Of a DNA stretch of 64,000 nt, positions 11,180 to 59,675 are shown one piece after another (the stretch's first letter is position 1; each line of letters starts with the position of its first letter). A model generated the notes under the pieces. That model saw only the letters and a program-made list of their open reading frames with translations, was not told where the DNA came from and ran no database searches. Made by a program: the position numbers and the translations under genes. The stretch is from Minutocellus sp. GHC0000111 (Eukaryota), in contig OZ361256.1 in NCBI GenBank assembly GCA_977018835.1, forward strand, positions 2,914,001 through 2,978,000, written 5' to 3'.

Positions 11180-11488
11180 CGTTGATGAGTCGCTGGACAA
11201 AAATGAGACCAGCAAACACGCACGAGACGAAGATCGCGGCTCAAGAAGGGGTTTCTTCGACGCAAACATGACGCATACACGTACGACGGCCAGATGAAAT
11301 TCACTCCGCGAGCACAGCGAGCGAGCGGCGGCGGCGTCCAGTCATCGTCAGTCCAACCACACCACACCAGTCCGTCCAAGGGCTCGTCCGTCCAGTCCGT
11401 CCACTCGTTCGAGGCCGAGAGTACTGAGTAGTGACCGACCCACAGGCATCTTGAGCAGCATGTGCTATCGCTCAACAATAACAACACA

Positions 11489-12760
11489 ATGAAACGGAAT
11501 GCAATCTCCGACATCAACACATGTGTTCAAGTGGATGTGACTGTCCCAGTGCACAACGCCTCTGAAACGATAAGGGAGACAGTCGAGTCAGCCCTGAATC
11601 AATGGATTCCAAAAACACTGAACGGTTCCTTGCCTTCCGAGGAGGGCATCGATTGCCTATCCAATATTGATATCGATGTTGCAGTGTGCTGTCACGACGA
11701 CGGATCGATGGATGAAAGTCTGAAAATGCTGGAGGAGATGTCTGTGCAGCAGAAAAGTGATGAAACAAAAGCCGCAAGCACATCGCCACCGGTGGGGGCA
11801 TCGAGAAGAATACGTACCCGTTTGCTCATTGGAACCAACGCAGATGGTGTGGCAAGAGGTGCTGGACATGCCCGAAACAGAGCCACAGAGCTGCGCGCTC
11901 ATGATGACGGCCCATCTTGCACTCCAACGCCACCACCATTGTCGTGTCTTTGCTTGCTGGATTCCGACGACACCATGCACCCGTTCCGAATAGCAGAACA
12001 GTTGAATGCGATGACATCCATACCAGAGGGGGATGACAATCGACGAGAACGAACTTTGACAGGATGTGCGTTCGACCGAACACCGGCTGGATCAACTTGG
12101 CACTGCTCCGAATGGGCGAACGGACTGAGTGATGAACGTTTGTTGTTGGAACGACACAGAGAGGCAACATTGCTACAGCCAACGTGGTTCCTTTCCCGAA
12201 CGCGGTTTGAGGAACTGGGTGGACACATCGAGGCACCGCACCCCAACACATGCACTGCAGAGAAAAAATTCTCGGAGAAACACAGTTCTGGGAAAAATGA
12301 AGATTGCGAACGCAGATCGAGCAACGAAGAAGGCAGCAGCAGGCGACATCGTCTGATCCATGCTAAGCACGACACGCCCCACACTCTCCGTCTAGCGGAA
12401 GACTTGCGCTTCTTTCATGAGCATTTGCGCGCTTCGGGGGGCTTGCTCAAGCTGCACCGAACAAGCCAGCCCCTGGTGACGTGCCGCCACAGGGCTGGAC
12501 AGTCGCAGAGCTCTTCCACTCCACGGAAGCTGCTGTTGAATCTGTGAGTTGTGGCATTCGAGGACAGCATCCTTCGGACCGATCCGCGATGGGCTGACTC
12601 CAACTTTGTGATGTGGGGAGCTGGCAGGGACGGAAAAGATTTCTTCAAGTCGCTAAGTCCTGATCTACGGGGGAGGGTGAGATGCTTCGTGGACGTCGAC
12701 GAGAAGAAGATTGCCGCTGGGTTCCACGCCAACCGCGATCTCGGCATCAAGATTCCCACA
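11489..12760 (+). pseudogene. QTGAL: Hypermutated, truncated GT2 glycosyltransferase of the B3GNTL1/QTGAL (queuosine-tRNA galactosyltransferase) type
   Basis: VPVHNA, DDGS, CLLDSDD, QPTWF, AEDLRFF, WGAGRDGK, FVDVDEKKI. In-frame TGA at 12545-12547, no Tyr codon in the whole frame, and homology breaks at KIP (12757). Confidence 0.85.
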
Positions 12761-15092
12761 ACAATTTTGCGCCCGAGGAGAGAGACAGATAGCATTGGGA
12801 TAAGTTTATGCAACAATCAACCCGACAAAGGGACTTTTTGGTCTGGGAGATAAATGGGTGAGTTAAGAAGGACGTGATGTGTTTGTTTGGGTGTGCTGTT
12901 TACTTTTTTGCTCAATCGCGATGCTGTTTGTAAAAGTTGGACTGTGCAATTCATTTGTTGTTGTGTAGCAGCAATGTAATTTCATTTTCTAATTTTACAC
13001 ATGCCCTGCTCCCATCTCTACATCCTCATCTCCATCGGTGGCCATCATGATCATTTTTGTTGGCGCTTGTCATCAGTTTCTGCTTTAACAGCTTCGGTCC
13101 TTGTCCTTTTCCTTGTTCTTGCCACCCGAGAGTTTCGCTCCCGCCTCTCCTCGACCTTTGGATTGGATGCCCTCTCCTCAGCCTTGAACTGCGCCGTCTG
13201 TTGGGCCTCATGTCCCTTGACGCCCTGAGTCCGACGATCTTCCTTAACGCCCTCTTGGTGGGCTCGCTCCACAAACGATTCGTCGAGCCAACAGATGCGC
13301 CGCCCCATCCATTCTTCACTAGCCAAATGTGTTGGTCCAAGATGTGATCTTCGAGTAAGTGCCACTTGGCCGTCATGCTAATGCCGATTGCCCGTGCTTG
13401 CTTGAGGGCACTTGCAATCAATGCTTCAAGCTCTCTCACAGCCTTCTTTGCCTCATCATCCCATTTCATGTGCCATTTCAGAAACCTGGAACACATTGCG
13501 TCAAGAGTGTGGAGCAAATTAGAGCAAGCTTTGCAGAGCTCTTTGATGTCGTCATCCGTCATGCCATCTTCCTCGCGATTGTGCTCTAGGAGAGTTCCTT
13601 TGGTGGAGGTGTTGTGGTGGATGAACTCTGTTGTCCTTGGTTTCTTCTTGTTGTTGCCATCAGAAACATTAACAGACAAAGCTCTCCTGCACTCTGCCAG
13701 CACTGCCCTTGTTTTACCTGACTCGGCCGCCTCAATGCCGGCCTTTTTCAGGAAATGGAAGTGAGGGGCATCGTCATCCTCGGCATCATCATCGACAGCT
13801 CCCATCTCTGGCTCGCCATCACCGTGCTTCTGACGACTCTTCTCAAAAAGTGCTGCTGCATGCATGCTTCATGTGTAGCGTCCTCTCTTGCAACATCAGC
13901 TTCGTCCTCATGACAGGGCACACAGTCCTCGTCTTCGTCGTCATCGTCCTCACTGATCTCGCCGGCCTCCGTCGTGGTCAGGGTGCCCACCGTCCCAACA
14001 TCGTCGTCATTGTCCCACCCATCGTCCTGGCCATTGTGCCCACCAGGGAGCTTCTGGGCCTCGAGCAACATCTGCCTGTTGATTTCGTAGTCCATCGCCG
14101 CATGTCCCACCGATGCATGTGGTGCGACCGACTTGAGGAATGCATCACATGCCTTCGTCAAATTGAGCCGCGGCGGCGGCATTTCGAGGCGAAGTTGTTG
14201 CTCGACCGTGACCATGTCGAAAGCCATCCATCCATCACCATGGAGAGCGTCGGCTGCACGAGGATTGACAGAACCGAGGCGAACAAACATGCTCTTTTTG
14301 CATGGGGTTCGCTGAACGTCGTCGGCAAGGCAGTGTCTTGACACCATTTCATCCCATCCATTCTGGTTGTCTGTCCTCTCACAAAAAACACATCGCAGCA
14401 GCAGTCTTCGTGTTTCTTCTTCTTCAAACCCAAGATGCCGCCGCCGTGCATGATGGGACTGCATCCCAACACATTCATCAAGGAGTCGTTGTTGTTGCCG
14501 ATGAAATTGTAGTAATGAAGTTCCTTTCTGCGAAGACGGACGAGCAGTTCAGCCAGGGCGTCCTGCACCGCAACTCTGTCTGTGCTGTCTGCGGTGTTGA
14601 CCGCGGGATTGCGGCCGTTATTTTTTTTGCTCATGGAGAACTGTGGATCGAGACCAACGGGAACATCACCAGGATGTCGGGAGTACCTGGTTGGTCTCGT
14701 GCCGTAATTCTCCCACACCAGCGCGAGATGTCGCCTTCGTTCTGCACGGTGGCTCGCGTTGGGCGCGCCGGTCGGTTGCTTCGCGCGCCGGCCGGCCACC
14801 GAAAGTGCGACCAAAAGTATGTGAGTCATCCGGCTGGCAGATGGTGCTGTGGTTGGGCGCGCCGGTCGGTTGCTTCGCGCGCCGGCCGGCCACCGAAAGT
14901 GCGACCAAAAGTATGCGAGTCATCCGGCTGGCAGATGGTGCTGTGCGGTGGCGGTTGCGCGAACGGTCTGTCCGTCCATCAGAAAAGACGCGAGGGGGAG
15001 CTGCTGCATGCATGCTTCCTGCCGCCCTGCGGCATTTTCTGTGGCAGAGAACAATGAAAGCCACCTCACCGCCTATGACATAGCAAAATCGT
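12761..15092 (-). mobile_element. Decayed, internally deleted DNA transposon with a Transib/Chapaev/RAG1-like transposase C-terminus
   Basis: Minus strand reads ISMTAKWHLLEDHILDQ...G (frameshift) LDESFVERAHQ, i.e. HxxxxH followed by the last catalytic Glu. Possible 10-bp imperfect TIR acaattttgc (12761-70)/gcaaaatcgt (15083-92). No TSD seen, so boundaries are tentative. Confidence 0.6.
14758..14945. repeat. 94-bp tandem duplication (2 copies, 1 mismatch)
   Basis: 14758-14851 vs 14852-14945; the only difference is tatgTgagt vs tatgCgagt. Confidence 0.95.
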
Positions 15093-15135
15093 AATCAATT
15101 GTCTATCTTGCATTTACTTGCCCTCTATTGAAAAC

Positions 15136-17107
15136 ATGGCAACCCCCACATTGGCTTCGGACTCACCAGAGATACGATCAGGGAAGAACCAACAAAGCAA
15201 CAAGCGACGAAGAAGTACGACGATGACAGCATCGTTCTCCAAGCTTGGTGCACCTTCGGTTCTGCTGCTCATGCTGTTGATATGGTCGACCCCATCGGCC
15301 CACGCATTTACACAAAACTTGGCACATGGGCACGGCTTCTCGTCACGGTTATTCTCAGAAGCATCGTCAGAGGATGCAACTCCACAACCAGCACAAGATG
15401 TGTCCAAAAAGAAGCAGAAGAAGAAGAAGAGCAAACGAAGCGTCTCGTATGATCTTGGCTCGGGCCAGAACAAACCTTTGGATCATTTGCGGAAGAATGC
15501 TGCTGGCAATTCTACGGCCGATAGTGATTCCATAATAAGTGGGTTGAGCTACGTTGATTTCTGGGGTGCGGGATATTCACAGGACAGTCGTTCAGGTTCA
15601 CAAAAGCCACGGATACCAAGTGCACCTCAAGTGTACGACAAGAGCAGCAAGCAACCGAATGGCGACGATGACAAGACGAAGTCAGCGCCAAAGAAGAAGA
15701 AGACGGCCCGATATGATTTGGGAATGAACAAGAATTCTCCAATTGTGGCCGGTGCCGAGCGACGTCGGACTCGGAAGCTCATTGCCAAGGGCGACGATGG
15801 GGAGTTCCTAAGTCGAGCCACTGGAAGCGGCGGGACGACGTCCTTGTCTGGTTTGAGCCGCGTGGAGAAGGGCAAGGATGAGCCGAAAAGGTCAAGATCT
15901 GCGAAAGCAACAGCCGACGACAAGACGGGAGAGCGGCTTCCGCATCGTGTGGACAGTTGGGATGAGATTGAGGATGATACCAAGAGCAGCGGCCTGGTCG
16001 GTGCGCATATCGATGGTGGCTCAACTGATCCGTCATCAGTGCCTTCTACAAAAGAAGTTGAGGGCGACAAGTCTCTCCATGAACACCACGTTGACGATGA
16101 AGCTGTGGAAGCAGCGGCCTCGGCATATGTGAATGCACTACTGCATGAGGAAACCGACATTGATGATGCCGAAGAGACATATTCATGAGTCGACAAGTAT
16201 CTCTTCCAGCAGCGACGGACCTGTTCCCTTTGAGGATATTGACCTTTCAGTGCCCCTTTCTGTCTATGATCCGGACAACAGCATAGATCTGGTGTGGGAT
16301 TTGATGCGCTACGAAGCCAACGAGGAGGCAATCCGTGAGCCCATTCTGGTCAGTTTCCTGCATTCCACCATCCTGAACCATCCCACCCTCGAATCAGCCC
16401 TGGCTTTTCATCTCGCCAACAAGCTCTCAGCTCCGGCCATGATTGCCACCCAGATCATGACCCTCATCAAGGAGGCTTTGGATGCCTCACCGACATTCCG
16501 CCGAAGTTTGAGAGCAGATATCTTGGCAGTGAGAGATCTTGACCCGGCATGTGAACATCTGCCGGATGTTTTTCTTTATTTTAAAGGATTCCACTCGCTT
16601 GAGAGCTATCGCGTTGCCAACCATCTGTGGAAGACAGGACGAACCACGCTTGCTCATTATTTGCAATCTCAGGTGTCGCAAACCTTCCAGATTGATATCC
16701 ATCCAAATGCGACCATTCTCGAAGGCGTGATGCTGGATCATGGAACCGGCATTGTGATCGGCGAAACGGCGCAAGTTGGTCACAACTGCTCCATATTGCA
16801 CCACGTTACGCTTGGCGGATCTGGCTAGAAGGGCGTCGATCGTCATCCCAAGGTAGGAAATGGAGTCCTTCTCGGCGCCGGATGCTCGGCTCTGGGCAAC
16901 GTTCGTTTAGGCGACGGATGCCAAGTTGGTGCCGGGACGCTCGTCATCGAGGATCTTCCGGATCATTCCGTCGCCGTTGGTGTACCGGCCCGAGTGATCG
17001 GTACCTTTGTGGACGTAGCGACGCAGCCAGCGAGAAATATGAACCAACTGGGCAGCAAGGAAAGTGACGAGATGATCCAACTTACCTTTGAGTCGGAGGG
17101 TATATGA
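15136..17107 (+). CDS. cysE: Serine O-acetyltransferase, probably plastid-targeted, with a long N-terminal extension; disrupted in this sequence
   Basis: EPILVSFLHSTILNH, DLDPAC, YFKGFHSL, IDIHPNA...LDHGTGIVIGETA...HHVTLGGSG*KGVDRHPK. Frameshift near 16185, in-frame TAG at 16826-16828, presequence SAHAF. Confidence 0.88.
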
Positions 17108-17348
17108 TCCATAGTCTAACATAAAAACGAAGATACAATGCCAAATGCATATCAAAAATGGATAAAAGTACTTTTTACTTTTATGTATGTATCTAATCTC
17201 GTTTGGCGTGCAAAGTTGGTCCGTGGCGTATATATGGGCGTATCCCTCTTCATCATGGATATTAGATAAACTCGGAAAGCTAAAGATCAACCCTGACTTC
17301 GAACATTCCGAGGGCTCTATTTCTCTTTTGCCATTGTATCAATCAAGC

Positions 17349-18089
17349 TCACTTCGTTGATTCCGCCGTGGCCGCCGAGCTCATCGAAGCGGCCGCTTCC
17401 AGGCGCTCCTCATTCTTCTTCTGCATGGCTGCCATACCATCAGCACCTGCACCAGAAAATGATGTGGCAGAAGAAGATACCGCAGAATTCATACCACTGT
17501 CACCCGTCATGTCCTTCTTCATCTTGTCGATGTGCACACGCTTGACGGCCATCAGATGCATGGTTTCGGCCTGAGCAAACACGTTCGTCGCATTGCTTGA
17601 AAGGAACCGAGCCGATGCCGCCTGCTGCCTGTTCTGGAGCTGCATTTGCACCTCGTGGGAGAGCTGAGACGATGGTCTCATAGCAGAGGCCTGATGATAC
17701 GCATGGTGGAACTGAGGTGGCAACTGCTGAGGGGGGTACATGGCAGCAAATTGCTGGAGTGATGCACCGCCGGCCGGCACAGGCTGATGGGGAAAAGTGT
17801 TGGGAGCGAAATGCGGAGGAGATACTTGGGCTATGTTTGGGTGGACGGTGCCGCCGGTAAACGAAGAAGGGGGGACCATGCTACCATGAGGTGCTAGAGT
17901 CGTCATCGGAAGGACCATGTTTGACATTCCCGGAGGAGAGACGCATACAGTGGCTCCTGCAGTATTGGGCCAAGGAGGGCGAACAACTCCACCTCCATCA
18001 CCACCACCAAGAGGGGGCATCTCTGCAGTTCCCATCGCGGCATGCAGCTCAGCAGCCGATAGATGATTCGCTTCAACCATATCGTCCAT
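17349..18089 (-). CDS. Hypothetical Pro/Gln-rich protein
   Basis: 247-codon ORF from ATG 18089, low complexity, no recognised domain. Confidence 0.5.
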   Translation of the reverse strand: MDDMVEANHLSAAELHAAMGTAEMPPLGGGDGGGVVRPPWPNTAGATVCVSPPGMSNMVLPMTTLAPHGSMVPPSSFTGGTVHPNIAQVSPPHFAPNTFPHQPVPAGGASLQQFAAMYPPQQLPPQFHHAYHQASAMRPSSQLSHEVQMQLQNRQQAASARFLSSNATNVFAQAETMHLMAVKRVHIDKMKKDMTGDSGMNSAVSSSATSFSGAGADGMAAMQKKNEERLEAAASMSSAATAESTK

Positions 18090-18611
18090 ATTTGGAATGC
18101 AATGGACTTTTGTTTTTTTCTTTCTCGTCTCAATGAAAACCGATATCGAGCACGAGTTGCGTTGGAAATTTGGCCTGAGATAAATTAGGCAGGACAACAA
18201 GTCTAAGATGCTGAACTGCAGACACAACAAAAAGTAGGAAGACGCGCTCTTTGACGAGAAAGTCAGTGCTTTGTATGGATTAGATAACGAGGAGGAAAGT
18301 TCCTATGAATGCTTGCTTTGTGTCGTGAAGCGACTAATCCTTACGCAGGGGCATCCGTTTCAGTTGTTCGACCTTGAGAGTAAACAGAAGCAATCGATTG
18401 GACGGTATTTTCCAGGGCAGCACGAGTTTACCGAGCAAGTAAATTCAGGTGGAGAACAGGTGATATAAGTGATAAACAAGAAGAGCCAAGAAAGATTGAC
18501 CGGCTGGCTCGCCACTCGATTGAGTCGACAAATTCAGGCATCACATGTGCGGTATCTTGTCCATCGGTCCATCAGGATTGCATCAAAGATCAAAGACGGC
18601 GGCTATATTCA

Positions 18612-30100: not shown

Positions 30101-31099
30101 TGTGACTTTTGTGGTTGTTCGCTTGGTAAATGCAATATCCTGGCAATGCAAGTGCAGTGGCCGCAGATGCCGGTCCGGTTCGGTCAGGTATAAATTATTG
30201 TCGTCGTCAAGTCAAGTCAGGCTATACCGAGGAGCAAATGTATGGTCCAATCCCGGTCAAAAGGCTTGCCAATCCAATGCCCACGTTGCAATTCCGCGCG
30301 GCAAGGCCTTTCGCTGGCCGTGGAACGCCAAATCTCTATTTTTGGGGCGGACTGTACCGAGTGAGACCGACCGCCCCACGCCAAAATTCAAAAAGCGGCA
30401 CACGCACGAGATGTGTCGTTTTTTTTTCGTTTTCACTCTCGCTTGGATCTAATCTCCCCGCTGGAAAAAAGATACCGCGGCCAAAAGTAAGCAGAGGTGC
30501 AATGGTCACCGCCAACGGGTAGAGTTTGAGCTGTGGTGGTGGTGGGGGGGTATCCTCCAGAACGGTTGGTACGCACACTTGATGCCCTCCGCTCTTGCCG
30601 ACGAAAAATGAGGCGCCGCGTGACGGCAACGCCGGCGCGGCGTCGCTGCCGTCACATGCCAGGGGGGGCCAAGGGTCCGCGAGCGCGCGCCGGCGCGCCG
30701 GCCCCCGCCAGGAATTGTGATGCTATGATGACGAGGCGGAAACCCTGAACACATCAAGCAGCATGAGAGGTAACATGGAGAAATGGGGTGAAGTTCCCGG
30801 GTCATAACAATTTTCATGAACGGAGAAAAATCAATGATCGAAGCGGCACAACCCCAAAACACCCCCGAAGATAAAAAATGTTAACAATGCAAACAATCGC
30901 ATCTTCCGCGGCAAATTCACAGAGCCTACACAGTGTTTCCTCATCGTCTTTTGCTAGCTAATTGTTTTGGCCCCGCTTCACCTTTTTTCTCTGCCGAATG
31001 GTTGTTTCCGAATTTTTCGCGCGCTTCTGCTGAAATTTTCGAGGCGCCGGCCATGCTGAAAAATGCACCCGTCACATGCTACATGCTGCTGCTAGCAGC

Positions 31100-31876
31100 A
31101 CGCCAAGATGAGTCTGCCGTCTCATGGTGTTTGCTGTCGGGCCACACTCTCAAGCCAACCTCTGGCGAGGAGTGTGCCGGACAGTCTGGTCCACGATCTG
31201 TCCGCGACGCATGCCTCCGAGTTCCAATCGCTTTTGGGTGCAGGGGCTGACAGTGATGCCGTCTTCGCTGCAGCGCCATGGATGGTCGTTCACGTCAACG
31301 CGGCCGTCCACCTCTTCCATGACGGCCCTGCTGTGCTGGTCACCAACAACATGTGTGGCCTGCTGCCAAATCTCGCCTCAGGAGGACTGCGCATGCATCC
31401 TCGTCCATGGCCGGGTGGCATGCATCGGTCCCCCTTTCGGAGCAACCCACAATCTGTCGCTGGGTGGCGTCGAAGGCACACAGTGAATGAACACATTCAC
31501 ATTCTTAAAAAGGCATGAGCACTGTCCCGAGCACCACTGCAATCCACGGAAAAACAAGAACCGCAACAGCAGGCAAGCGTTCTCGTGCTTCCGACACAAA
31601 TGACACTCTCCGTCGCCTCCACTCCTTTGCACAAACTTTTGGCAAAGCGAGAACACTCGCCAGGCCTGACGGTCATGTCCTTCCTGTCAGAGGGATTGGG
31701 GAGACAGTCATCATCCAAATCGTCAGCAGTTGCGTCGATGAATGTGCCGGATTGAACCTCCACACAACATAGTCCTAGGGCTTCCCCAGCCCCCGCAGCG
31801 ACTGGTCGGCTCCCGAAACAGCCGCAGGGAGGGAAGCGAAGAGGGCGAGAGAGGTGAGCGTTGCGTCGAGCTTCAT
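31100..31876 (-). pseudogene. Decayed gene for a secreted Cys-rich protein inside a TpA-depleted tract
   Basis: Signal-peptide-like MKLDATLTSLALFASLPAAVSGA followed by broken Cys-rich frames. The 3' boundary is approximate. Confidence 0.4.
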
Positions 31877-32043
31877 GATGATGACAATGGCGGCGGCGAA
31901 GTGTTTCAAGTGCAAGAAACGAGCGAGAAAAACGTGTGAATGAATTTCTGGGAAAAGCACAGAGTTGGCACTAGCACCCGCGGTAAAGGAAGTGTGCAGT
32001 CAAAGCACAAAGGGCGCAAAGTTGTTGGCTTCAATTTTCATTG

Positions 32044-37548: not shown

Positions 37549-40500
37549 AATCAGCAAAAGGGGACGCCGGTGTTGGTTATGAAGACACGCTTCCCTTCGC
37601 CGCTCGACAACTCGACCTCAGCTGCTTGCTTGAGTCGCATCGGAGAAATGAAGAATGACGTTGGAGTTCGTCCGTCCGTCTGTCCACATACGTACGTAAA
37701 TCCATGTCCGTATCCGTACGTAATGAAGGTGCCATACGCGTACGTACCACCATCCCTTGGTACCACACCTGCTTCCAGCCCACACCAACACGCCGATTCG
37801 TTTTGCCTGCATACCCATGCTCCTGGTCGCAGACGCAAAAGGAGTCACGCCACTTGTACTAATTTCACGAGAAAATGGCGCCAAAATGGGCACCACCGCT
37901 CCCTGGCATAGCGCGAGTACCATCAAGTAACTTTTGGTAGTAAACGGTTAGCTGCTAGTTCATACTATCGAGAACCACTGTGCCGGTTACTACCAAAATT
38001 CACTGGAATTGGAGCGACATTTCTCTACTTTCCATTGACCCCCTCTTGGCGCCATCCACCGACGGCAACGCGAGGATCAGCAGGGATCTGGAGGTGGATT
38101 GTTGTTAGTTTTATCAACCCAACCACCGATTTTATGCTTTGAATCAACCATAGTGGTGCATAGGGCCGTAGAAAAAGCACCTATCGTTGAAACGAACACC
38201 AACTACTTCGATTAGCGTCGGTGCAGTAAAATTCTGTGCTGGTGGAGGTTGATTTTCGCCCCCCAATTGGACTCATCGGTACCGACAATGTCAATGTGGA
38301 GACACTTTTTATACATTTATCGGTTGTATCACCTAGCTGCATATATGGGGTCATTAGAAATTGCCTGGAGGTGAAGAGAAAGGGGTACTTCTTGTCTATT
38401 TGGTGCATGTGGAACATCTTGGTGAAATGGGCTGGAGGCCGAGGCGCCCTGAGTCTGAGATGTAGAATTGATGCTGTCCGCCCCATGCACGCAAACTCGT
38501 GAACACTCCCATGCATTTGTCTCCTAGCATTATATATCTTTCGACTTTTGATGAGTTTCATTGGGTTACTGCGAGTGATGGGTATAAATTTATTGATTGC
38601 ATTCAATTTTTATGGGGCTCTCAGCAAGATTGCCGGAGGTCAACCTTGCTGAGGGAGGATGATGATAGATCGGCATGAGGACGCAACCAAGAGTATTCTT
38701 TTTGCTTTAGTTCCATTATTTTTTTTAGCGCAGCAGCAATTCAGCGCAGCAGCAATTCCTCGCCTATACTATTGTTACAAAAGGGTCTATGTCTAGATAC
38801 CGCCCTACAGCTTGCTAACAAACTGATTTACCAAAGTGAATTGGTAGCGGGCCAACAAAATGAAGTGAATTAATTCTGAGGTTTCGTTTCTCCAGTTGGC
38901 CTGAGTTTCCCGTCCAAAGTTTCTCAGAGGTGTAAAGTTGTCGCGGTAGGGTAATGCAAGAACCCGAACGTCTAACCTCCGATGAAACCGATAATAAAAA
39001 TAATCAACCAAAATTGTTTTGCACGTGATAAAGTGACTTGAAAGAACCTGGTTGGAGGCCCAACTTGTCCTCCACCCTTGCTCCCCATCGATCAACATCT
39101 CGGCCTTCCACCATCCAGGTCTGTAAATCCACGGACCCAACGTCGTCGAACCCAAAGAAGCGAAGAGTATTCCGGTAGCCATGTCGTAGCGTTTGGCAAG
39201 GCCGTCCCCGTGCTCGATTTGAGTGGGTTGATCTGACCGTGGGGTCGCCCGAAGGCTTGACCCATGATGCCAAGAGTGCTCGCACGATCTATGCTTACCA
39301 GCACACCAATGAGCATTTATTCGGGCTATCTCCATTATGTATACATATAAGAAGTTATTTTTATGTAAGTAATGTGTTCTTGTCTACTCAATGGGGTTTT
39401 GTAGCCATGGTCATCAACAGTAGTTGCGATGGGGCCACCGCAGAGCCCGCGACCTTGCTCTCACACATTAGTAACATCTATAAATATCAAAGTAAGCCAT
39501 TTTACTACAGCTACTACCCATAGAATTCCACCCGATATATACCCTGGTGCGGCTCTATGAGAGTGTTGTCGAGTTCGTGGTTATTTGTTGAGTATAAGCC
39601 CTGACTCTTCGTGAAGGTCAACGACCACCGACATTTACGATAAAATCGTCAAATTTTCACATCGACTTGCCTCCATTATTTTCCTTGCCAGCACAAAGGA
39701 CCTTTCATGAGCATAGAGGCCGCTCGGGTATACCAAGGGCCGTTGTTTAATGCCCTTCCCGTTGAGTAGATGTAGTTGATTGTTGTTCAGTACCAACATT
39801 GGTATTTCGAATCAGAACCCCGTCAAATCTGGCGTCGACCTCCACGAAACATTCAGATACTTATTAAATCGTCAATCTTTGCAGCAACCCCGCGAAACTT
39901 TCCATCCCTGAGCCGCCTCATATCATATGTAGGTGGGAATAAGGTACTGATGTGGTGAATGGACGTGCATGCACCCAAACTATCGTCATGTTGATATTTT
40001 GACCGACGAAACTACGGAAACTTTCCACCCAAAAATGACAACATGACATAGTTTGGCCGAACCATCGACCCAATTGCCAGAAAAATGCTATCGGACCTCA
40101 GCGTGGGTACATACCACCCGAACGGAAGCCTCACTATCGTTGATTTGGCGTAGATAGGTACACCTATTGAGAAAGTGATATCGCGGTGGAGAAGTTGAGG
40201 AGAATCTGGAAGTTCTGACTTTACCTGTCATTGTGTGATAATGCAATAGGTTCCAAACACAAACTCAACAATGAACACATACTCTTCCATTCTTTGGTAC
40301 ATACCTTGGCAGGATTGAACGAGAATCGGCACCCCAGGGCTCAATTTCAAGATCTATTCCACCTCATCTGATTTTGGCGCCAATCCCAACACCGGAAAAA
40401 TTTCGGCAAATCCACAAAGCCCCAACGAAATTATCCACTTGCTGACACCCAAACCGCAGAAGAAGCACATCGATCGCTCCAGTAGAGGCATGGTAGCGAA

Positions 40501-41151
40501 ATATCAAAAGTTGTATAGACACTCTAAGCGGATTTTTCCGAGCAATAAGGCCACATCGACACTGAGGATCGTTTTTGCAGAGGAATCAGATTCTTGATTT
40601 TTGAGACGGCGTCGGCGTTTCGCGACTGTTGCACATGCGAACTCAAAACCACTGCCCCACCGCCCCTCGATGCTACCATTGGATCGATGTTTCAAGTCAT
40701 CAAACGTTGGCAATCTCTCATCATATCGACGCCAGCGTTACTTTTCTTTGCGATTGTAGCGTGGATGTCGAGGTCGGCCGATGACATGCGCCGGTAGTCA
40801 ATTTTCGTCGGTATCAGGAATGGGATGCTCAGAATGACGACTCACTGGCCAAGCCACATGTATAGAGAAGAGTTACTGAGGCGGGCATGGTTGGTGCATA
40901 TCATCTTGGGGGTCGTCTGGGCACATCACATGCCGGCTTGAGGGAAATTGTGAGAAATGGCACAGTCGAGAGAGAAGAAGTCGGGACATGTCGGAATGAC
41001 GTGACACTACTAAAGATTAGAGGATCCCTATTACAAAAGATCGGCTTTTATTTTATTACCAAAACGCACGCAAAAGCAGGCCGCGTGTTGGTGTGAGCCA
41101 TCATCACATAAGACATGTGATGTTCTCATTCATGCCTGCTCCCTTTGAACG

Positions 41152-42322
41152 ATGAAGAGCCACACCAAAGAAGCGAATGGGTCCAGCGAACAAGCAGCAT
41201 CGGGAGATGCAAATGCCGCAATGCCTGCTTCGCCGGCATCCTCGCTCACACAAGATGTAGAAGCGATCCACCAAAGATACGACTCAACAGGTCCGCATAC
41301 CGCTCTTATCCTGCCCATTATCAACTTTGTCTCCAGTCTAATTGTTATTGCCACCCGTCTCATTGGATTGGATGCGGTGGTTTCCATGGCGTTATCGGCT
41401 GGCCTGACAGTCTATGTGTACAATGCCACCGAAGAAAATGGAACGTTCGACGGTGGCGTGATGAGTTGGACACTCCTTACTTTCGCAGTAGTGACACCCC
41501 TCTCCGCCAGCGTTGGGATGGCGTTCAATCGGAGGGAGAAGGCGTTGGTATATTTGAAGACGATACGAAGCTCGATGATAAACATGTACCTTGCCCATGT
41601 CAGTTGGGATTGGCCCAAAAGGGGTCAACCGGAAAGTGGCCGGGAAGCATGCACCGTTATTGGCTCAGATGCGAAGGAAAAGGAAGATTGGGTGGCGTAT
41701 GGAGACGAAGTGTTGAGCGGTCTGCTCGGCCTAATTGAGGAGCTGCGCATGATGTTATTATTGCCCACATCTTCCCGGGCACGCCACAAGGTCCTGCCAA
41801 AAGGCATAGAAGAAGCCCAGGACATTCACGAAGTATCGGAACGCATTCACAAATCGCTGGTTGGTCGGATGGCAGCACTTTCAGCTCAGTGCGAATATCT
41901 CAAGCTGCAGGGGTTGCCGGGGAATGAAGCTAGTAGAATTCGCCAGTGGGAGCAATTCATTCTTGATAGCATTGAAGGCTTGAGGCAAATCAAGAGCTAC
42001 AGAACACCTCAGGCTCTGAGGAGCTATTCTCGGCTGCTATCAGTGATTATACCGCCGCTGTTTTGCCCTTATTACGCCGATCTGGCAAGAAGTACTGGAT
42101 CGCTTGGTCTGGGAATTTTTTTACGCGATATTGACGGCAGTGGCCTTGTCTGGTTTGTTCGATTGTGTCGCGCAACTGGAAGATCCCTTCTTTGGTCACA
42201 CATCACTCGACGGGGTGAATGTGCAGGAGGAGCTGGGGAAGTGCTTCAACGGTCATTTGCTATTATTGCGATATCAAAAGTTTGCAGATGCCAAGCCATT
42301 CGAAAGGGAACCCAACAAATAG
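41152..42322 (+). CDS. Bestrophin-like multi-pass membrane protein (frameshift in a T-run near 42120)
   Basis: Several TM helices; AFNRREKAL, IKSYRTPQALRSY, QLEDPF. Confidence 0.6.
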
Positions 42323-42375
42323 AATTTAGAAGTCTTACCTACCCCTACTAGCTGCATAGCTACGTAGCTAGGAAT

Positions 42376-42924
42376 CTACTCTCCATCTGAATAAGAGTCC
42401 ACCAATCGTTGCCTCTCACTCTTTTGCATATCGATCATATCTTCGTCGCATGATTGGGCTGCTAGAACAGCATACGAGAGCCTTCCAACACCACCGCTGA
42501 GAATCCATTCCTCCATGTATACCTTGTTGACATGCGCATATCTTGTCTCCTTGATTCCCTCATTGCTCCCGACAGATCTTTCCAAGCTAACAACCTTTGG
42601 TACTTCCACGTCGAAATCCAACAAAAGAGAGTGGGCCAAAATCTTGGGATATCGGCGCGCACAATTGATCGCCTTGCTCTTGGCTTGGCGCCAAAATGCC
42701 ACCACGCCCCATGTGTAGCCTAACTAACTCCCGGCCACGAAGGGCAGGAGCGGACCGCACGAAAGTAGGGCGCCGGTTTGGCCCGCCACGAGACCAAGGG
42801 TCAAGCTGGAGTAGAGGGATGAAGCGAGGCATTTGGCCACGAAGCGAGCACGTGCCGGTACGCTCACGCCGGTGAAGGAGATGAGACTGGCTAGGCCATC
42901 GAAGCGAGAGTTGTCGTCGGACAT
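42376..42924 (-). CDS. Hypothetical small membrane protein with an in-frame TAG at 42724-42726
   Basis: Two ORFs in the same frame: ...PFVAGS*LGYTWGVVAFWR...; probably TGG->TAG. Confidence 0.6.
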
Positions 42925-43139
42925 GATAATGGGCAGCAGTTGATCTATTGATATGTATTACAAATCAGCAAAGAATGCCGCAAGGCCGATTAGTAGAATC
43001 CGCGCCACTGGAGCGCGGAAGACCGATTGCTTTCTTTTGCTCGCTCATCTTTGAAAGATTCTTTTTGGTCTGTCCGCCGTTACACGCCCCATGGTTTCTC
43101 CAGCCACCTTGAATGAATGTGCTGTTTGCTACGTAGCTA

Positions 43140-43309
43140 CAGTCCGTTCTCACCTATAAGCAATTGAGTCTCGGGCCCGAGGTCTCAAATTGCTTATTTT
43201 GGAATAAGGAATAACATGCGATTGAGGTACCAATTAGAATAAGCAATATGCTCAGAATCTCAGCCCTCGCCTAAGCAATTTCCAATTGCTTATAGGTGAG
43301 AACGGACTG
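43140..43309. mobile_element. 170-bp Tc1/mariner(pogo)-type MITE
   Basis: Perfect 27-bp TIR cagtccgttctcacctataagcaattg (43140-43166)/caattgcttataggtgagaacggactg (43283-43309), flanked by TA on both sides, with internal taagcaat/attgctta motifs. Confidence 0.93.
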
Positions 43310-43342
43310 TACGTAGCTACTCTAGAGATCTCCTTATGTAAC

Positions 43343-43605
43343 TATTGCGGAAGCAAACGTTTGCAGATGCCAAGTCATTCGAAAGGGAAACCAACAAATA
43401 GAACTAAGAAGTGTTACCTAGATTTTTACCCATACTAGGTAGCTACATGTAGCTAGGAATCGAATCGATTCTCCATTTGAATAAGAATCGACCAATCTGC
43501 TTTGCCTCTCGTTCATCTGCGTCTCAACAATATGTTCGTCACATGATTGGGCAGCTAGCTAGTAGTAGCTAGAACAGCATATGAAAGCCTTCCAATGCCG
43601 CCATT
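43343..43605 (+). repeat. Diverged direct duplicate of ~42264-42497 (3' ends of the two convergent genes)
   Basis: Shared gtttgcagatgccaag.cattcgaaagggaa.ccaacaaatagaa, ctccat.tgaataaga and catgattggg...gctagaacagcata.ga.agccttccaa. Confidence 0.88.
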
Positions 43606-43798
43606 CAAACTAACTATTAAATTTGCGTGCGTACATGTCGCGTCCAATATTGACGTAGGACTGACTATCGGATAAGCTCGCCATAGTGTTCAATCAACCC
43701 TCACTTTGGAATCCTACACTACTGGTAGTAAATATATATATATTGTCATTACTACTAAATTTATGATTGATAGATCGCCTCGAGACAATGTTCCAGGC

Positions 43799-48270: not shown

Positions 48271-50580
48271 TTGGTTCTAGCGCAAGAGGCGCTGGCGGGG
48301 TGGTGGATATTTACCCTGTGGTCATTGTCGTGGATGACAATGACGTTCCTGACATGGCGCACGGCCATGCAAGGGGACGTGGACGCGCACAGGCTGTGGG
48401 CGGAGGCTTTGCGTCGGACCGCACTCGCGTTTGTGTTCGGACGCGTCCTTCTGGCGGCCTACTCGTACGTGCTGTGGCTGGCGTGTGATTTCTCAATAGC
48501 CGACCACTCAACCCATATCACGATTGCCTATACCTATGCCATCGCAGGTACAGCACTGTTGGCGCTGTCGTATACGTTGGTTTTGGCATTGCCGCGTGCT
48601 CGACTGGTTCAGCTGCCGGGGAAAGTTGACGCGTGGTGCAAAATGACCTTGGATGAAATCTTCCGCCTGATTATACAACAGGGAAGGGATAAAGGAATGC
48701 CGCCTATGACATCAACGCCAGATGGATCCTTGAGAAGCATTGGCAGTGCAATCGATGGAAATGGGGGCGGTGGAGTTAATTCTCATCGAAGTTGTGCGCA
48801 GGGGGCGCCGAGGTGGAAGCTAAGCCCGAGGATCGCCGGGAACGGTGGCGTTCTGTTTCTCCTTTTGCTTATAGCCTATGGCTGGTCGTTGGATAGGGAT
48901 TGGCTCCCTATCAATTGGTGTCTTGCTTGCACCATTGTATTTCTGGTTTCTCTTGGTGGCACTTACGCTGCCGCGGAGGGAATTTATTCGTACCTCAAGG
49001 TTCGGTGGGGACTCGAGAGGTCAGGAAAAAGGGAAGAATTGGTTGTGGGCATTCAGGTCATCTCCAATCTTCTTCTCTCTTGCGTCTTACTTCGATATGT
49101 CGTATTCAGCTCCTGTTTCTCCTGCATTGCTCACTACATATCAAATGAACGTGAATTCGGCGATTCATTCTTCGACAAAGACAGCACGCATGGCCTTTGG
49201 CGGCTTGTTTTTGGGCCCTCTGAGGGAATGGATGCTGATCCTGCCAATGAACAATGCCACACTTGCTTGGCATGGGCAGTGCGAACGATGCTCGTTGTTA
49301 CGAAGCTGTTCAGAGACGGTGGAGGAAACGGTGTCACATCTGCTGACTCGTCCGCTAATGTGCAAACTCGCCACGACCTAATCCGGTGGCACAATGATTT
49401 TTCCGTCAGAGAATCAAAGAAGTGCTTGCAAAGCAGCAGGGGGCGCTTGGTGGAAACTCTAGCTCAAGATGGTCTGGTATCAAGTTCCGATCTCAGGAAC
49501 ATACTCAATGATCTCCTTTGTTCTCCTGCATCCAGAGTGGACAGCCCTGACCCGGCTCAGTTTTTGGCTTCTCTCGAGAATCCTCGCTTTACTGGAGAAG
49601 AGACGAATTTCGTCGGCACGGGTGGTCTGAACATGAGCGACCTTCAATCCATTATGAGAGGCGACATGCTGAAAGAGCTTGGCCCAAGTGTTTGCTTTAT
49701 GTTACGATTTTCTCTCTTCATCGAGGAAGACTCTGGTAGTGAGCGTGCACCAATCAGCTCTGTTCTTGACGCGGTGTCGTTGATGAGTGAGACTGACATG
49801 CGAGCGCAGGATGCGGTTTTTGATTTTCCAGGGACGGTCATTGCGGGTCTAGGTAAGTCCTTCCTTTTGCTGATAATTATCACACGCAAATACACCTTTT
49901 AGATCAGATTTCTCCTGACAAGTCTTTTTGCTCATTCGACCTTGGCCCTCCATTTATCATTGCAGACCCCGACTTTGACATTGACGCCAAGCAAATGGGG
50001 ACAATCAAGACCGCCGTCGACGTCTTCACTCAGCTTCCATTCGAAGACGAACCTTACCATTTCCCGACAAGGCAGCATTGTCTCGCTTTCTTCCGCTGGA
50101 CACTCGAAAATATTATCCAAGAAGACTGGCACTTCCCGCGCTGGCTTAACAGTGTGAACGGAGGCGATGATTGCAGGTTGTTGCTCTCAGAGCAAAAGAA
50201 GCTTTCTCCCAGTTTGACTACGTTTGAGGACCCACAGAGTGATGCTGCTCTCGGCGATCGATCTTTTTACGGAACCGGCCAAAGGTGCATGACCGCCATG
50301 AAGGTCCCTGGTGATGTCGACTATCCTTTTTCTTTTCCCGGCAATGCAAATTGTTACATCACGCGAAATCACACCGAGTTTTACCGACATGCCAACAAAC
50401 CTACATCGGAGGATCTCCTCAAGATGATCGAACGATTTTGGTCGGACAAGAGGCGCAGAAATGTTTTCAAGAAGAAGGGCAATCAAAGCATGGGATGGAG
50501 CTGCCGGACCGACGGGAGCGGCGACATGCTGGCGCATCAGCTGCGGTGGCAGCAGCAGCAGCAACAGCCATTTGCATTAA
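48271..50580 (+). CDS. Uncharacterised membrane protein (DUF2306-like TM N-terminus) with a soluble C-terminal region; both ends uncertain
   Basis: TM helices with GDVDAHRLW, intron donor gtaagt at ~49853, and a continuing coding-like frame from 49995. Confidence 0.5.
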
Positions 50581-52161
50581 CATGGTGTTGGATGCAGTGT
50601 TTTGTGGCAGTAGAGCAACAGTTTGCATGTCGGGTGGGTTGGAAATGAGGAAGGTTTCATTGAGTGGCGGGCGCGCCGGGCGGGTGATGATTTTTTTGGC
50701 CCGCTCGATTTTGGCGCGGGGTCACCCGGACCGCATGATGAGACACGCCATTGTGGGGACCATGGAGACCGATGTCGGAGCTCAAACCACATGGCTGCTT
50801 GAATCAATGCATTTGGGAGGTGGTGGTGGGGTCGGGAGGTGGAGGAGGTGACCAGTTGTCATCGGAAAAAATGGCAGAAGTCGGGAGGGGCGATGGATGG
50901 GGTGAATCGGCCAGACACTGGCATGGGAAGATGAAATCGACATCTCCGAGTCGGTCCAAGGTCAAGGACCAACCCGTTCTGGAGACACCACGCTTGTCCC
51001 TTGCGTGAAGCGGATGCCGTCGGCACTGCCGTCGTCACCGCCATCTTGAAGACAGGACGACAGCAAACAAATGCTGCTTGCTGCGTGCGTTTGTGCTGAT
51101 TTTTATGAGATTTTGCCCAAAGACCCGAAAACCGGGTCCCTGAAACTGCTGTCCGCGACCTCGCACACAAGCTAAATTTGTAGCTGAGGGCTCGGGCACC
51201 TCGAGCCAACTTTCGGTGTTGCAGATGTCGACGTCATGAAAGACATTGGTTTCTGTGTCGCTGCGTCATTCCGAAAGCAGATTCACCTCAAGACCGCGCA
51301 TCTTTTTTTGTGAGAGTCCCGCCGCGGTGTCGAAGGAACACTTCAGCACAGGGCCCTCACTACACGTTGGGTTGGATGAGCACGAGGGGAACGGAGATCA
51401 ACCCACACCCCTTCGCGTCTCTGGCACCCACAAGCTGCACCAGCTCCGAATTGATTGATTGGTTGCACGATTTTCGATCCGATCCGATCGCATCTTTTTT
51501 TCCCTTGAGCGCATTTGACATGCGTGGTGGCAGGCCGTGTTTCTTGTGGAAACATCTTCAAAGCGCGAACTCCGGTGGTGACGTGGTGACGCGGTGACGC
51601 GAATTCATTTTCGGGACGGACTGCTGGAACGCTTTTCTTCACACAATTTGCTTTGGGATTGACCAAGCAGGAGTTTGCTTCCTCAATCTCGACCTAGTCG
51701 TAGCGGTTCCGTGTGTTTTTGGAACAAACCGGCACATCTCGTGCCACGAAATTTTCGCGCGGCGCGGACGTGAGTGACGCACAAAACTCGAATTAGTCAA
51801 GGCTCGGCGGCATCACTAATCCAAGGCACCTTTGAGGACAGGATTTCCATCGCTTTGCGCGGGCAAAAGGGAGCTTAGATGACCGTGCTGTGTTGTGTTT
51901 CGTCCTAGCCGGGCATGTCGCACGCGCACGGCAACACAAAGCCAAACCAGTTACACCGCGCCGCGCGGGAATTCTTCTGTCGGGCGGGCCTGCCTGCTGC
52001 TGACGCGGTTGTCGTCTCTAGAGGATCGCAAGTGCTCCAGATCAGACACCTACTTGTTGGGAATGTGTCCTTGAATCTGATCTTGGAGATTCTTTGAGGG
52101 TTGATTTGTGAATCCATGTCTATCTTGGAAAAGAAGCCCCAACTCAGAAACGAATCGAATC

Positions 52162-57286: not shown

Positions 57287-58716
57287 CTACCTTCGATTCA
57301 TCATGCCCGGCATTACGTACGATAACGCTTTTTTGTTATCATCCAACTTTTTCGCATTGTAAAATTGACCACCCGAACGACAGCCTGGAGAAGCATCGCA
57401 AAGCATTTCCATTTGATCCTGGTCTCTCGGAACCCAAAGTGACGGTCTGAGCCACATGTGTGAGTTGGCAACCCACTTATGAAATCTTTCAAACAAATTT
57501 TCCATATCATCTTCCGTCCACTCGCAAACCTCTTTCCAATCTTTGACTATGATGATGGGCACGTGTGCATCTATGTACATGGCGTCCAGTGGCGATGAAA
57601 GTACAATAGGAACCGTGCCAAAGAAAAGGTATTCCCAAACGCGAAATGTGTATCGTAGCCCACACCTACGGGCGCTATTGCAAATTGGTGGGAGGCATGC
57701 AACGGCCATATTTCCAGTGACCCTCCTTTTGGCATTATTCGGATTCTTCCATCGGGACATTTCTCCAAGGCCATCCTTGCCGCTTTCCTGCCCTTATCAC
57801 GCCTAGCACTAACCCCTAGTGTCCCGACATCATATAGAATAGAACGATTTCTCTCAGCAAAAGGTTTTGCGGAAAGGCGGAGCTTGTCCATGGCTTTAAT
57901 CGTGAATTCGCTATCGGGCGAACCAGGAAAGCCCCTTTGAATCGGCAGTCCAATTGGAACTGGGAACAGCTTGGTGTGGTCTTGAGCAACAACGTTGGTG
58001 CTATACCAGGCCTTGATTTGTTCTGATCGGAATATTTTCTCGGGAATTTCATGAGGTAGAGCACGTGGAACGTCCCAGTCTTCGTCAGTCGTGATGATGG
58101 TAATATTTCCATTCCCACATCTCGTGTTTGGTAGTATTTTGGCGACCCACTCTCTCAAGTCCCAAAGTCGAACCCAAATGATTCCACACTGATTTGGGGT
58201 GAAATAATTATTGAAATCGACCCTCGACAAGGGTCGTGCAACTGTTCCTTTTGCATTGTAGTAGGTAATCGGCCTCTTTTTGTGCGGCAAAGCAATGTTG
58301 TAGAAACCCCGATTCCAAAGGACGTCGAGCTTAGGAGTCATTTCATTGCATGGATGTGCGGATGTTAGCCACGGCTTCCAATCCCGGGCGTGGATTAATT
58401 TCCATTTCGCAGGAGCACTGTTTGCAATTGGTACCTTCCGTGTAGTGACACTGCCAGCGCCAATCGCTAATGATTCTTTGCGAACAATTGTTTCATTGAA
58501 ATAACCTGAGGCTGTTGGCCCTGGGTCCCCTTGACAATAGATCCATGGAGCTACCCGCAGCGTCGCATTGTGCAGCCTTTTCACATCGCGATGGAAAGCC
58601 ACGTGTTCGCAATCGGCCTCTCCATCAAGACCCTTGCCGTCATGCCTTGCTCCTCGGATCGCATTCATTCGGTGTACATCCCGAGCATCATAAAGGCTGA
58701 GTCCACGTCGAGCCAT
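57287..58716 (-). CDS. Exostosin/GT47-like glycosyltransferase domain (frameshift near 57650)
   Basis: IITTDED, AWYSTN, KLFPVPIGL, HQFAIAPVGVGYDT (shift) FRVWEYLFFGTVPIVLSSPLD..Y...PIIIVKDW. Confidence 0.7.
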
Positions 58717-58791
58717 TCTCCTGGGCGGAAAACTTGATCCATGTCCTTCGAATTCTTCACACGGTTTTGGCCCTTTCTTGGCCCAAACATG

Positions 58792-59463
58792 TTATGTGGC
58801 ATCCATTGAGGGGGTGTCGAAAGGCCCACAAATCCCAACACGGTTCAAAAAGGAAAAAGACGGCGTCCCAATTCTTCTTGTTGGAGGAACTGCGAAAAAC
58901 AGCCTCTCGAATGCATTGACGTCGTGTCCCAGGCTCATGTCCCGTCCGCCGCAGACACCATCCATGTCCGTCAAAATGACACAGTCACAGTCAGCTAGTT
59001 CTTCCTCGATGTAATCCAAAACTTTGTTTCGTGCCTTAGCTATTCGCTCGGTCCGACCGCCCTGTGCTTGGCCCTTTTCAAGGAGCAACGTTGCCCGGCT
59101 ATGGTTCCCAAGGAGCTCCTTCAGTGCCGCCCGAGTGTCGTCTGTCGAGTCGTTCTCGTAGAAAACGCAATGCGTCTCATGTCCAAGCGCATCGCCGAGG
59201 GCTTGGACCTTGGGGATGTGGGCGCGCAGATGATCACCTCCGACGTTGCGCATCACCCCGGAAATGACAATGCGTCGGGGCCTTCTCGTTTTGCGTGCAT
59301 TGCCGTGAAATGAAGAATGTTCAACAAACGAGCCCAAAAGATCGTGCAGAGCCTCACCGCCCGAGTTTGCCATCGAGCCGTAGATCATTAGAAACAAATT
59401 GCTGCATGTGGTCATCACAATGGCTAGACCCATGACCCGGATGAGAAGTAGTGGACCTTTCAT
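58792..59463 (-). pseudogene. Type II membrane CAP59/GT-A-like glycosyltransferase domain, partly TpA-mutated; probably the 5' part of the same multidomain gene as 57287-58716
   Basis: TM anchor after ATG 59463; VISGVMRNV, VFYENDSTDDT, RTERIAKARNKVL, DCDCVILTDMDG. Confidence 0.6.
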
Positions 59464-59488
59464 GTGTTGTTTGTGAACGGTCCGACCA

Positions 59489-59675
<187 letters not shown>

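Follow-up and report, generated by a model that had tools for sequence, protein, structure and literature searches.

A:T-to-G:C hypermutation at TpA in a high-copy DNA transposon and in the adjoining glycosyltransferase gene of a probable diatom

Results

A glycosyltransferase gene without tyrosine abuts a transposon

The 64,000-nucleotide stretch of DNA analysed here (the window) contains a dead glycosyltransferase gene that runs directly into a broken transposon, with an older gene copy on the transposon's right side.

11462..12756, + strand: GT2 glycosyltransferase gene truncated to its 5' three quarters, dead and hypermutated, most likely one allele (Pfam PF00535; match to protein P0125)
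12545..12547, + strand: premature TGA, derived from CGA by CpG decay (reading frame; comparison with the intact version)
12757..14945, − strand: high-copy, broken DNA transposon of 2.2 kb with CAC...GTG ends (depth, varied flanks, ORF clusters)
14946..18170, + strand: additional copy of a serine acetyltransferase locus, older and broken (Pfam SATase_N), an internal control that is not TpA-erased

The gene carries the N-terminal GT2 domain (PF00535, E = 3.7e-7), of which LLDSDD is the DxD motif, and its named relatives are diatom proteins of 44-48% identity. We take the gene to be QTGAL/B3GNTL1-like, although that name was absent from its matches in searches for named relatives. A first reading, made from the letters alone (the sequence-only reading), had found no Tyr in about 420 codons, and this was borne out: frame 1 of 11489-12760 (+ strand) has 0 Tyr across 424 codons. 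The same reading overlooked the TGA at 12545.

Over residues 1-432, the window gene shares 93.5% identity with P0125, the closest intact protein, whose last 134 residues have no match anywhere in the window. In the shared stretch P0125 has 8 Tyr, which are replaced in the window copy by 5 His and 3 Cys, and Tyr makes up at least 1.4% of each of the other 145 stored relatives. The sequence-only reading had derived all of the altered residues from TA. This holds for 18 of the 27 residue differences, which are A:T>G:C changes at TpA, but not for 3 A:T>G:C changes at ApT, 1 at CAC, 4 CpG decays (a count that includes the premature stop) and a single transversion, at which the orthologues agree with the window residue. 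Where the window gene differs, the orthologues carry Tyr or Ile and are not natively His or Cys, which sets the direction of change for the Tyr and Ile sites; the ancestral state of T409A is ambiguous. Of the altered motifs named by the sequence-only reading, KIPT contains no substitution, its T being the gene/transposon junction. In GGHIE, the H is a TpA change and the I is CpG decay (V>I). JGI metagenome loci L001-L007, just 31-57% identical, were set aside for this comparison.

Mutated and intact versions occur in the same sequencing runs

Contigs, not raw reads, from 4 of 24 runs (X1, X5, X6 and X7) were aligned to 11200-13100. At 12194-12377, run X1 contained the window version at depth 74 (0 differences) and an intact version at depth 63 (9 differences), and a single upstream contig of depth 122 was common to both. 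This was also true of run X5, insofar as it held both versions. In run X6, an RNA library, 479 bases were identical to the window, which is no proof of transcription. Contigs that three studies (X1, X5 and X6) had assembled independently matched the window letters without a difference; together with the co-occurrence of mutated and intact versions within runs, this shows that the letters are real.

Most probably they are two alleles, a long duplication being the less likely alternative. The intact version continues past 12758 into the 3' part of the gene, in the loose ends of contigs. The intact partner of the left-side gene, P0125, is on a contig of 1,120,591 bp, and those of two right-side genes, P0429 and P0432, are on another of 800,161 bp, a separation that fits a rearrangement at the element or a break in the assembly there.

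Changes in the gene concentrate at TpA and fade with distance from the element

The DNA comparison of the two versions rests on 40 of 47 differences, 28 of them inside the gene; three beside indels (11330-11365) and nine in the element were left out of the gene count. These 28 consist of 20 A:T>G:C changes at TpA, 3 at AAT, 1 at CAC, 2 CpG decays and 2 transversions, the last of which are assigned to the other lineage and not to the window copy. All 24 of the listed window-copy changes that start from A:T are transitions, and their preference for TpA (20/24) is strong yet not exclusive.

11727..12726, no strand: zone of TpA>TpG/CpA change in the host gene (20/28 listed differences), densest towards the element

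Opportunity was counted over two X7 contigs (11392-11571 and 11612-12332), leaving out the change at 11868, which is one of the 28. By 5' base, adenines were mutated at 17/58 sites in TA, 3/113 in AA, 1/142 in CA and 0/138 in GA. The excess at TpA (17/58 vs. 4/393 for other adenines; Fisher p = 3e-13) is what the sequence-only reading had predicted for an alignment to an intact version, irrespective of codon position: synonymous TpA sites were also mutated in the window copy and are unaltered in the intact one. By triplet, the counts were TAT 11/25, TAC 5/20, TAA 1/5, TAG 0/8, AAT 3/28 and CAC 1/33, with GAT (0/42), CAT (0/40) and every remaining adenine triplet at zero. The motif order is 5'-T[A]T > T[A]C > T[A]R, and weakly A[A]T. 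Among cytosines, 2/120 were mutated at CpG and 0/326 showed C>T outside CpG, so that per base TpA was mutated about 17 times as often as CpG (17/58 vs. 2/120). The two strands are balanced: read on the + strand, 9 changes are A>G and 15 are T>C (p = 0.31), interleaved along the gene.

These changes are confined to the version of the gene that bears the element, and they thin out with distance from it. TpA sites were mutated in 11/12 cases at 470-700 bp, 6/10 at 701-1050 bp and 0/7 at 1051-1400 bp (p = 0.0006). Closer than 470 bp, where the DNA tables are incomplete, protein differences add further hits; four TpA remain in the gene within 400 bp of the element.

In contrast, the right flank was spared. 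Among the 40 listed of its 114 differences, 2 were A>G at TpA and 14 were transversions, and the share of TpA transitions differs sharply from that in the gene (20/28 vs. 2/40; p = 6e-9). In 14946-16200, the first 1.25 kb to the right of the element, 29 TpA remain. The sequence-only reading had TpA growing scarcer towards the transposon, which describes the left side but not the right. The leak is therefore one-sided, and two-sided spreading from the element is unsupported. The right flank also includes the next gene; it carries frameshifts and a stop at 16826 at a depth of about three copies, and beyond about 18900 the depth is again that of two copies. Two control genes kept Tyr at 6/6 and 4/4 positions relative to their cluster mates; of 10 control proteins, the cluster collection lacked 4 and had 3 as singletons.

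The element is present in many separately mutated copies

14634-12998, − strand: ORF remnants of the element (mapping of ORF relatives)
14758..14945, no strand: right end of the element, doubled in tandem with a 94-bp unit (repeat and end comparison)

Depth over the element reached 39,000-46,000, vs. 63-74 per gene version, although depth does not equal copy number. In the contigs, a depth of about 100 jumps at 12757 and falls past 14945, and the flanking sequence varies at both ends. Clusters of the element ORF hold up to 80 members, spread over many Mb-sized contigs that presumably belong to this assembly, since P0227 and P0125 lie on contigs of equal length. No match that would place the element in a superfamily was found in Pfam, NCBIfam or PDB. 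Relatives of its ORF keep the pattern PKxH..H..G..E..E.xHQ, likewise without a Pfam or PDB match. The CAC...GTG ends, which we take to be the rule of the Transib/RAG-like family, and the conserved ORF motif suggest a Transib/RAG-like identity. Transposons of that family leave a 5-bp target-site duplication. Here, none is present in the 5 bp compared (ATTCC on one side, CGGTG on the other), and these two flanks probably derive from different loci.

Two observations on the element come from RNA libraries. A contig of run X6 has TTAGGG repeats directly before the element's left end (12757-12780), and some copies may sit in telomeric repeats. At 12856-13076, 219 bases are missing from contigs of X6 and X7, and the gap is bounded by GT..AG on the + strand, opposite to the element ORF; a spliced antisense or read-through transcript is possible, the short side of the gap spanning only 25 bases.

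We compared 124 of 125 copies of the element ORF, with at most 15 members per cluster among those listed. Thirteen ORF columns vary between Tyr, His and Cys, and all 13 contain both His and Cys; over these columns the listed copies total 173 Y, 240 H and 255 C. Tyr is one codon step from His and one from Cys, and His and Cys are two steps apart. His and Cys are mixed within every listed copy having at least 4 hit columns (59/59), and 32 distinct patterns occur among 37 copies. Such mixing indicates that each copy was mutated separately, on both strands, after insertion. Coordination of hits on the same strand was not detected in the element copies (0.512 vs. 0.493 ± 0.013; 86 of 1000 shuffles as high). 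The Tyr column at 14089 is nearly intact (39 Y and 1 C in 40 copies), but the idea taken from it, that TACG is protected, was unsupported (p = 0.84). Distant relatives of the ORF most often have a residue other than Tyr/Phe at 6 of 14 columns, and at 2 columns no element copy has Tyr; at these columns we infer that Tyr was ancestral.

Other TpA-poor sites in the window

49995..50465, + strand: second mutated gene, no Pfam hit, running into a TpA-poor block (comparison with P0434)
50400..51600, no strand: TpA-poor block (TpA observed/expected 0.12), probably an inserted element, no Pfam hit
31050..32030, no strand: TpA-poor block with a Tyr-free reading (TpA observed/expected 0.15)
58600..59480, − strand: TpA-poor 5' half of a frameshifted CAP59-like pseudogene (TpA observed/expected 0.27; weak Pfam CAP59)

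Relative to P0434, the gene at 49995 has lost 7 of 12 Tyr, and 10 of 14 differences lie at TpA, in a comparison without an outgroup for which we infer the direction of change and from which the last 5 P0433/P0434 differences were dropped (non-homologous tail). Its mutated adenines outside TpA have a 5' A in two cases and a 5' C in one. In the block at 31050, positions 32013-32027 resemble the element's left end, reversed and with 1 mismatch. The CAP59-like pseudogene has His or Cys where a relative of 42% identity has Tyr (scored by eye), and its 3' half retains Tyr. No element was identified beside it, and its closest relative (63-67% identity) covers the 3' part only. Just upstream of the CAP59-like gene (57571-59466) is a (TG)n tract some 180 bp long (59490-59672).

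Across four TpA-poor blocks, with the glycosyltransferase gene excluded, triplet abundance relative to background was 0.12 for TAT, 0.27 for TAC, 0.46 for TAG, 0.48 for TAA and 0.71 for AAT (class test on the order of loss, p = 4e-6). This order matches the one in the gene. Although low TpA was the criterion for picking the blocks, it does not by itself entail an order among TpA triplets or a deficit of AAT.

Discussion

We propose that a mutator acts from A:T to G:C at TpA on the copies of the element and on about 1.05 kb of the adjoining gene, most likely through adenine deamination in transposon chromatin; we give this reading a probability of roughly 55%. A mutator of this kind, targeting repeats and leaking into a flanking gene, had been suggested by the sequence-only reading and gains support from the element copies and from the fade with distance. 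On our model, the transposon would have inserted into one copy of the gene, and the mutator would recognize DNA marked as transposon chromatin and rewrite both strands. A candidate TadA/ADAT-fold enzyme would deaminate adenine to inosine in DNA, and over many cell generations mutation would spread, in cis, about 1.05 kb into the adjoining gene on one side. Targeting could depend on silent chromatin or on read-through transcription, and the process may serve as a defence.

The spared right flank could be explained most simply by a younger junction, as the lack of a target-site duplication and the loss of the gene's 3' part suggest, or else by a leak that follows transcription into the element. 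The gene at 49995 fits the latter, whereas the CAP59-like pseudogene, mutated at its 5' end, does not clearly do so. More tentatively, and with the odds somewhat against it, diatoms and Rhizaria may share a natural TA-specific DNA adenine base editor, guided to transposon chromatin, that is carried in cis into host genes by read-through transcription and leaves heritable TAY rewriting.

Deaminases of the TadA/ADAT fold share with the process described here an A-to-G outcome on DNA, and 94% of the A-to-G off-targets of the engineered TadA editor ABE8e lie at TA (PMC13225742, available text). They differ in the 5' base: in the available text of PMC10354150 and 10.64898/2026.07.20.739671, TadA editors (ABEs) prefer a pyrimidine at −1, and amphioxus BjADAT2 prefers GAA and also deaminates C. 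The available part of PMC10661471 contains nothing on adenine motifs. Here, TA is followed by AA, the 5' base second to T in the gene being A and not C (3 vs. 1, small numbers). The order TA > AA is a better fit to WA than to the TadA pyrimidine rule.

WA is the motif of Pol eta, and the same targeting combined with error-prone, Pol eta-like patch synthesis, repairing methylated, deaminated CpG in silenced DNA, is an unlikely but coherent alternative. Non-canonical AID activity with Pol eta hits TA and AA, as here (PMC4686820, available text), the polymerase favours A-to-G (PMC13716900, available text), the four CpG-decay changes fall within the mutated stretch, and a late-replicating bias would suit silent DNA. 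However, the signature linked to this repair is, in the same text of PMC4686820, mostly A>C at WA, a class with 0/24 changes here, and repair begun at CpG sits uneasily with a per-base rate at TpA about 17 times that at CpG. Since all of the changes from A:T are transitions, deamination is favoured over repair of this type.

It is similarly doubtful, though compatible with much of the evidence, that a modified base at TpA in transposon chromatin miscodes, be it 5hmU/5fU of the TET/JBP type or deaminated N6-methyladenine. Oxidized thymine and deaminated N6-methyladenine can both miscode, and either would yield pure transitions, a strict motif, hits on both strands and spread along with a chromatin mark. 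Eukaryotic 6mA is found mostly at ApT. The unmutated GAT (0/42) and CAT (0/40) adenines speak against this source, but overall a modified base and deamination cannot be told apart in the present data.

A one-off event, in which either edited RNA was reverse-transcribed or single-stranded DNA was mutated in one burst while a break at the insertion was being repaired, is highly improbable and largely refuted: a UA preference like that of ADAR and the rearranged junction would suit it, but ADAR-type editing with retroposition leaves A>G on one strand per copy, whereas hits on the two strands are interleaved, 59/59 element copies are mixed without strand coordination, and the gene remains at its native upstream sequence. 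Least credible of all is an origin of the pattern in errors of assembly or base calling, or in plain decay of a pseudogene, since although the comparison uses contigs and run X1 may be the source sample, three studies match the window letters, the intact version stands alongside in X1 and X5, and the right flank, with its flat spectrum, shows what decay looks like (20/28 vs. 2/40; p = 6e-9).

The process as such is already known from Bigelowiella natans. According to the available text of a preprint on TpA hypermutation of integrated viral DNA in that species (Mettrop et al., bioRxiv 10.64898/2026.01.13.699255), 230 of 231 de novo mutations in two viral inserts were A>G/T>C, all at TpA, at a roughly 1000-fold de novo rate in mutation-accumulation lines. 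ADAT2 (ADAT2/3) is proposed there, unproven, the UA preference is likened to that of ADAR, and TpA-poor ORFs are enriched for DDE and reverse-transcriptase domains (10.64898/2026.01.13.699255). In both systems, as far as that text goes, the changes to foreign DNA are almost all A>G/T>C, centre on TpA and affect the two strands alike. They differ in that B. natans belongs to Rhizaria and its targets are single-copy viral inserts with mutations seen de novo, whereas here the host is a probable diatom, the target a high-copy DNA transposon, and mutation is deduced from sequence comparison. Particular to the present case are the 1-kb, one-sided leak into one version of a host gene, the 3' pyrimidine preference and the minor AAT class. 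The preprint's available main text contains none of the terms diatom, flank, spread, trinucleotide, stramenopile or heterozyg-. What is new relative to it is thus the diatom, the DNA transposon, the 3' base preference and the allele-specific leak. Our literature searches, which had most subscription journals outside their scope, listed RIP and transposon papers on fungi and the B. natans preprint, and no report of the process in a diatom was among the papers listed.

The other evident comparison is with fungal RIP. RIP depends on a RID methyltransferase-like enzyme and homology pairing and takes place premeiotically, in the sexual cycle. It acts on repeats and leaks into single-copy DNA (PMC9453070, available text). 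Both processes make dinucleotide-specific transitions in repeats and leak into a flank, here on one side only. The direction is opposite, as the sequence-only reading had proposed: C>T in RIP creates TpA, whereas here TpA is destroyed and non-CpG C>T is absent (0/326).

With these results, the range of a recently reported, unexplained A-to-G process grows to include DNA transposons and a second supergroup of eukaryotes. A mutated and an intact version in one sample form a built-in control that gives the motif, the reach of about 1 kb and the apparent action in cis, all of which can be used for choosing and testing a candidate enzyme. The process would alter how transposon ages, GC bias and pseudogenes are read in diatoms. 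If the more tentative reading of a shared editor is true, SAR algae would have their own A-to-G equivalent of RIP and would offer a TA-specific DNA editor from the wild. A natural TA-specific DNA deaminase would be of interest to base-editor work.

Elsewhere in the window, two repeats lie in a TpA-rich stretch at 42264-43595. One is direct, diverged and about 250 bp long; the other is inverted, perfect and 29 bp long (43138-43311). They are perhaps a young, unmutated small element.
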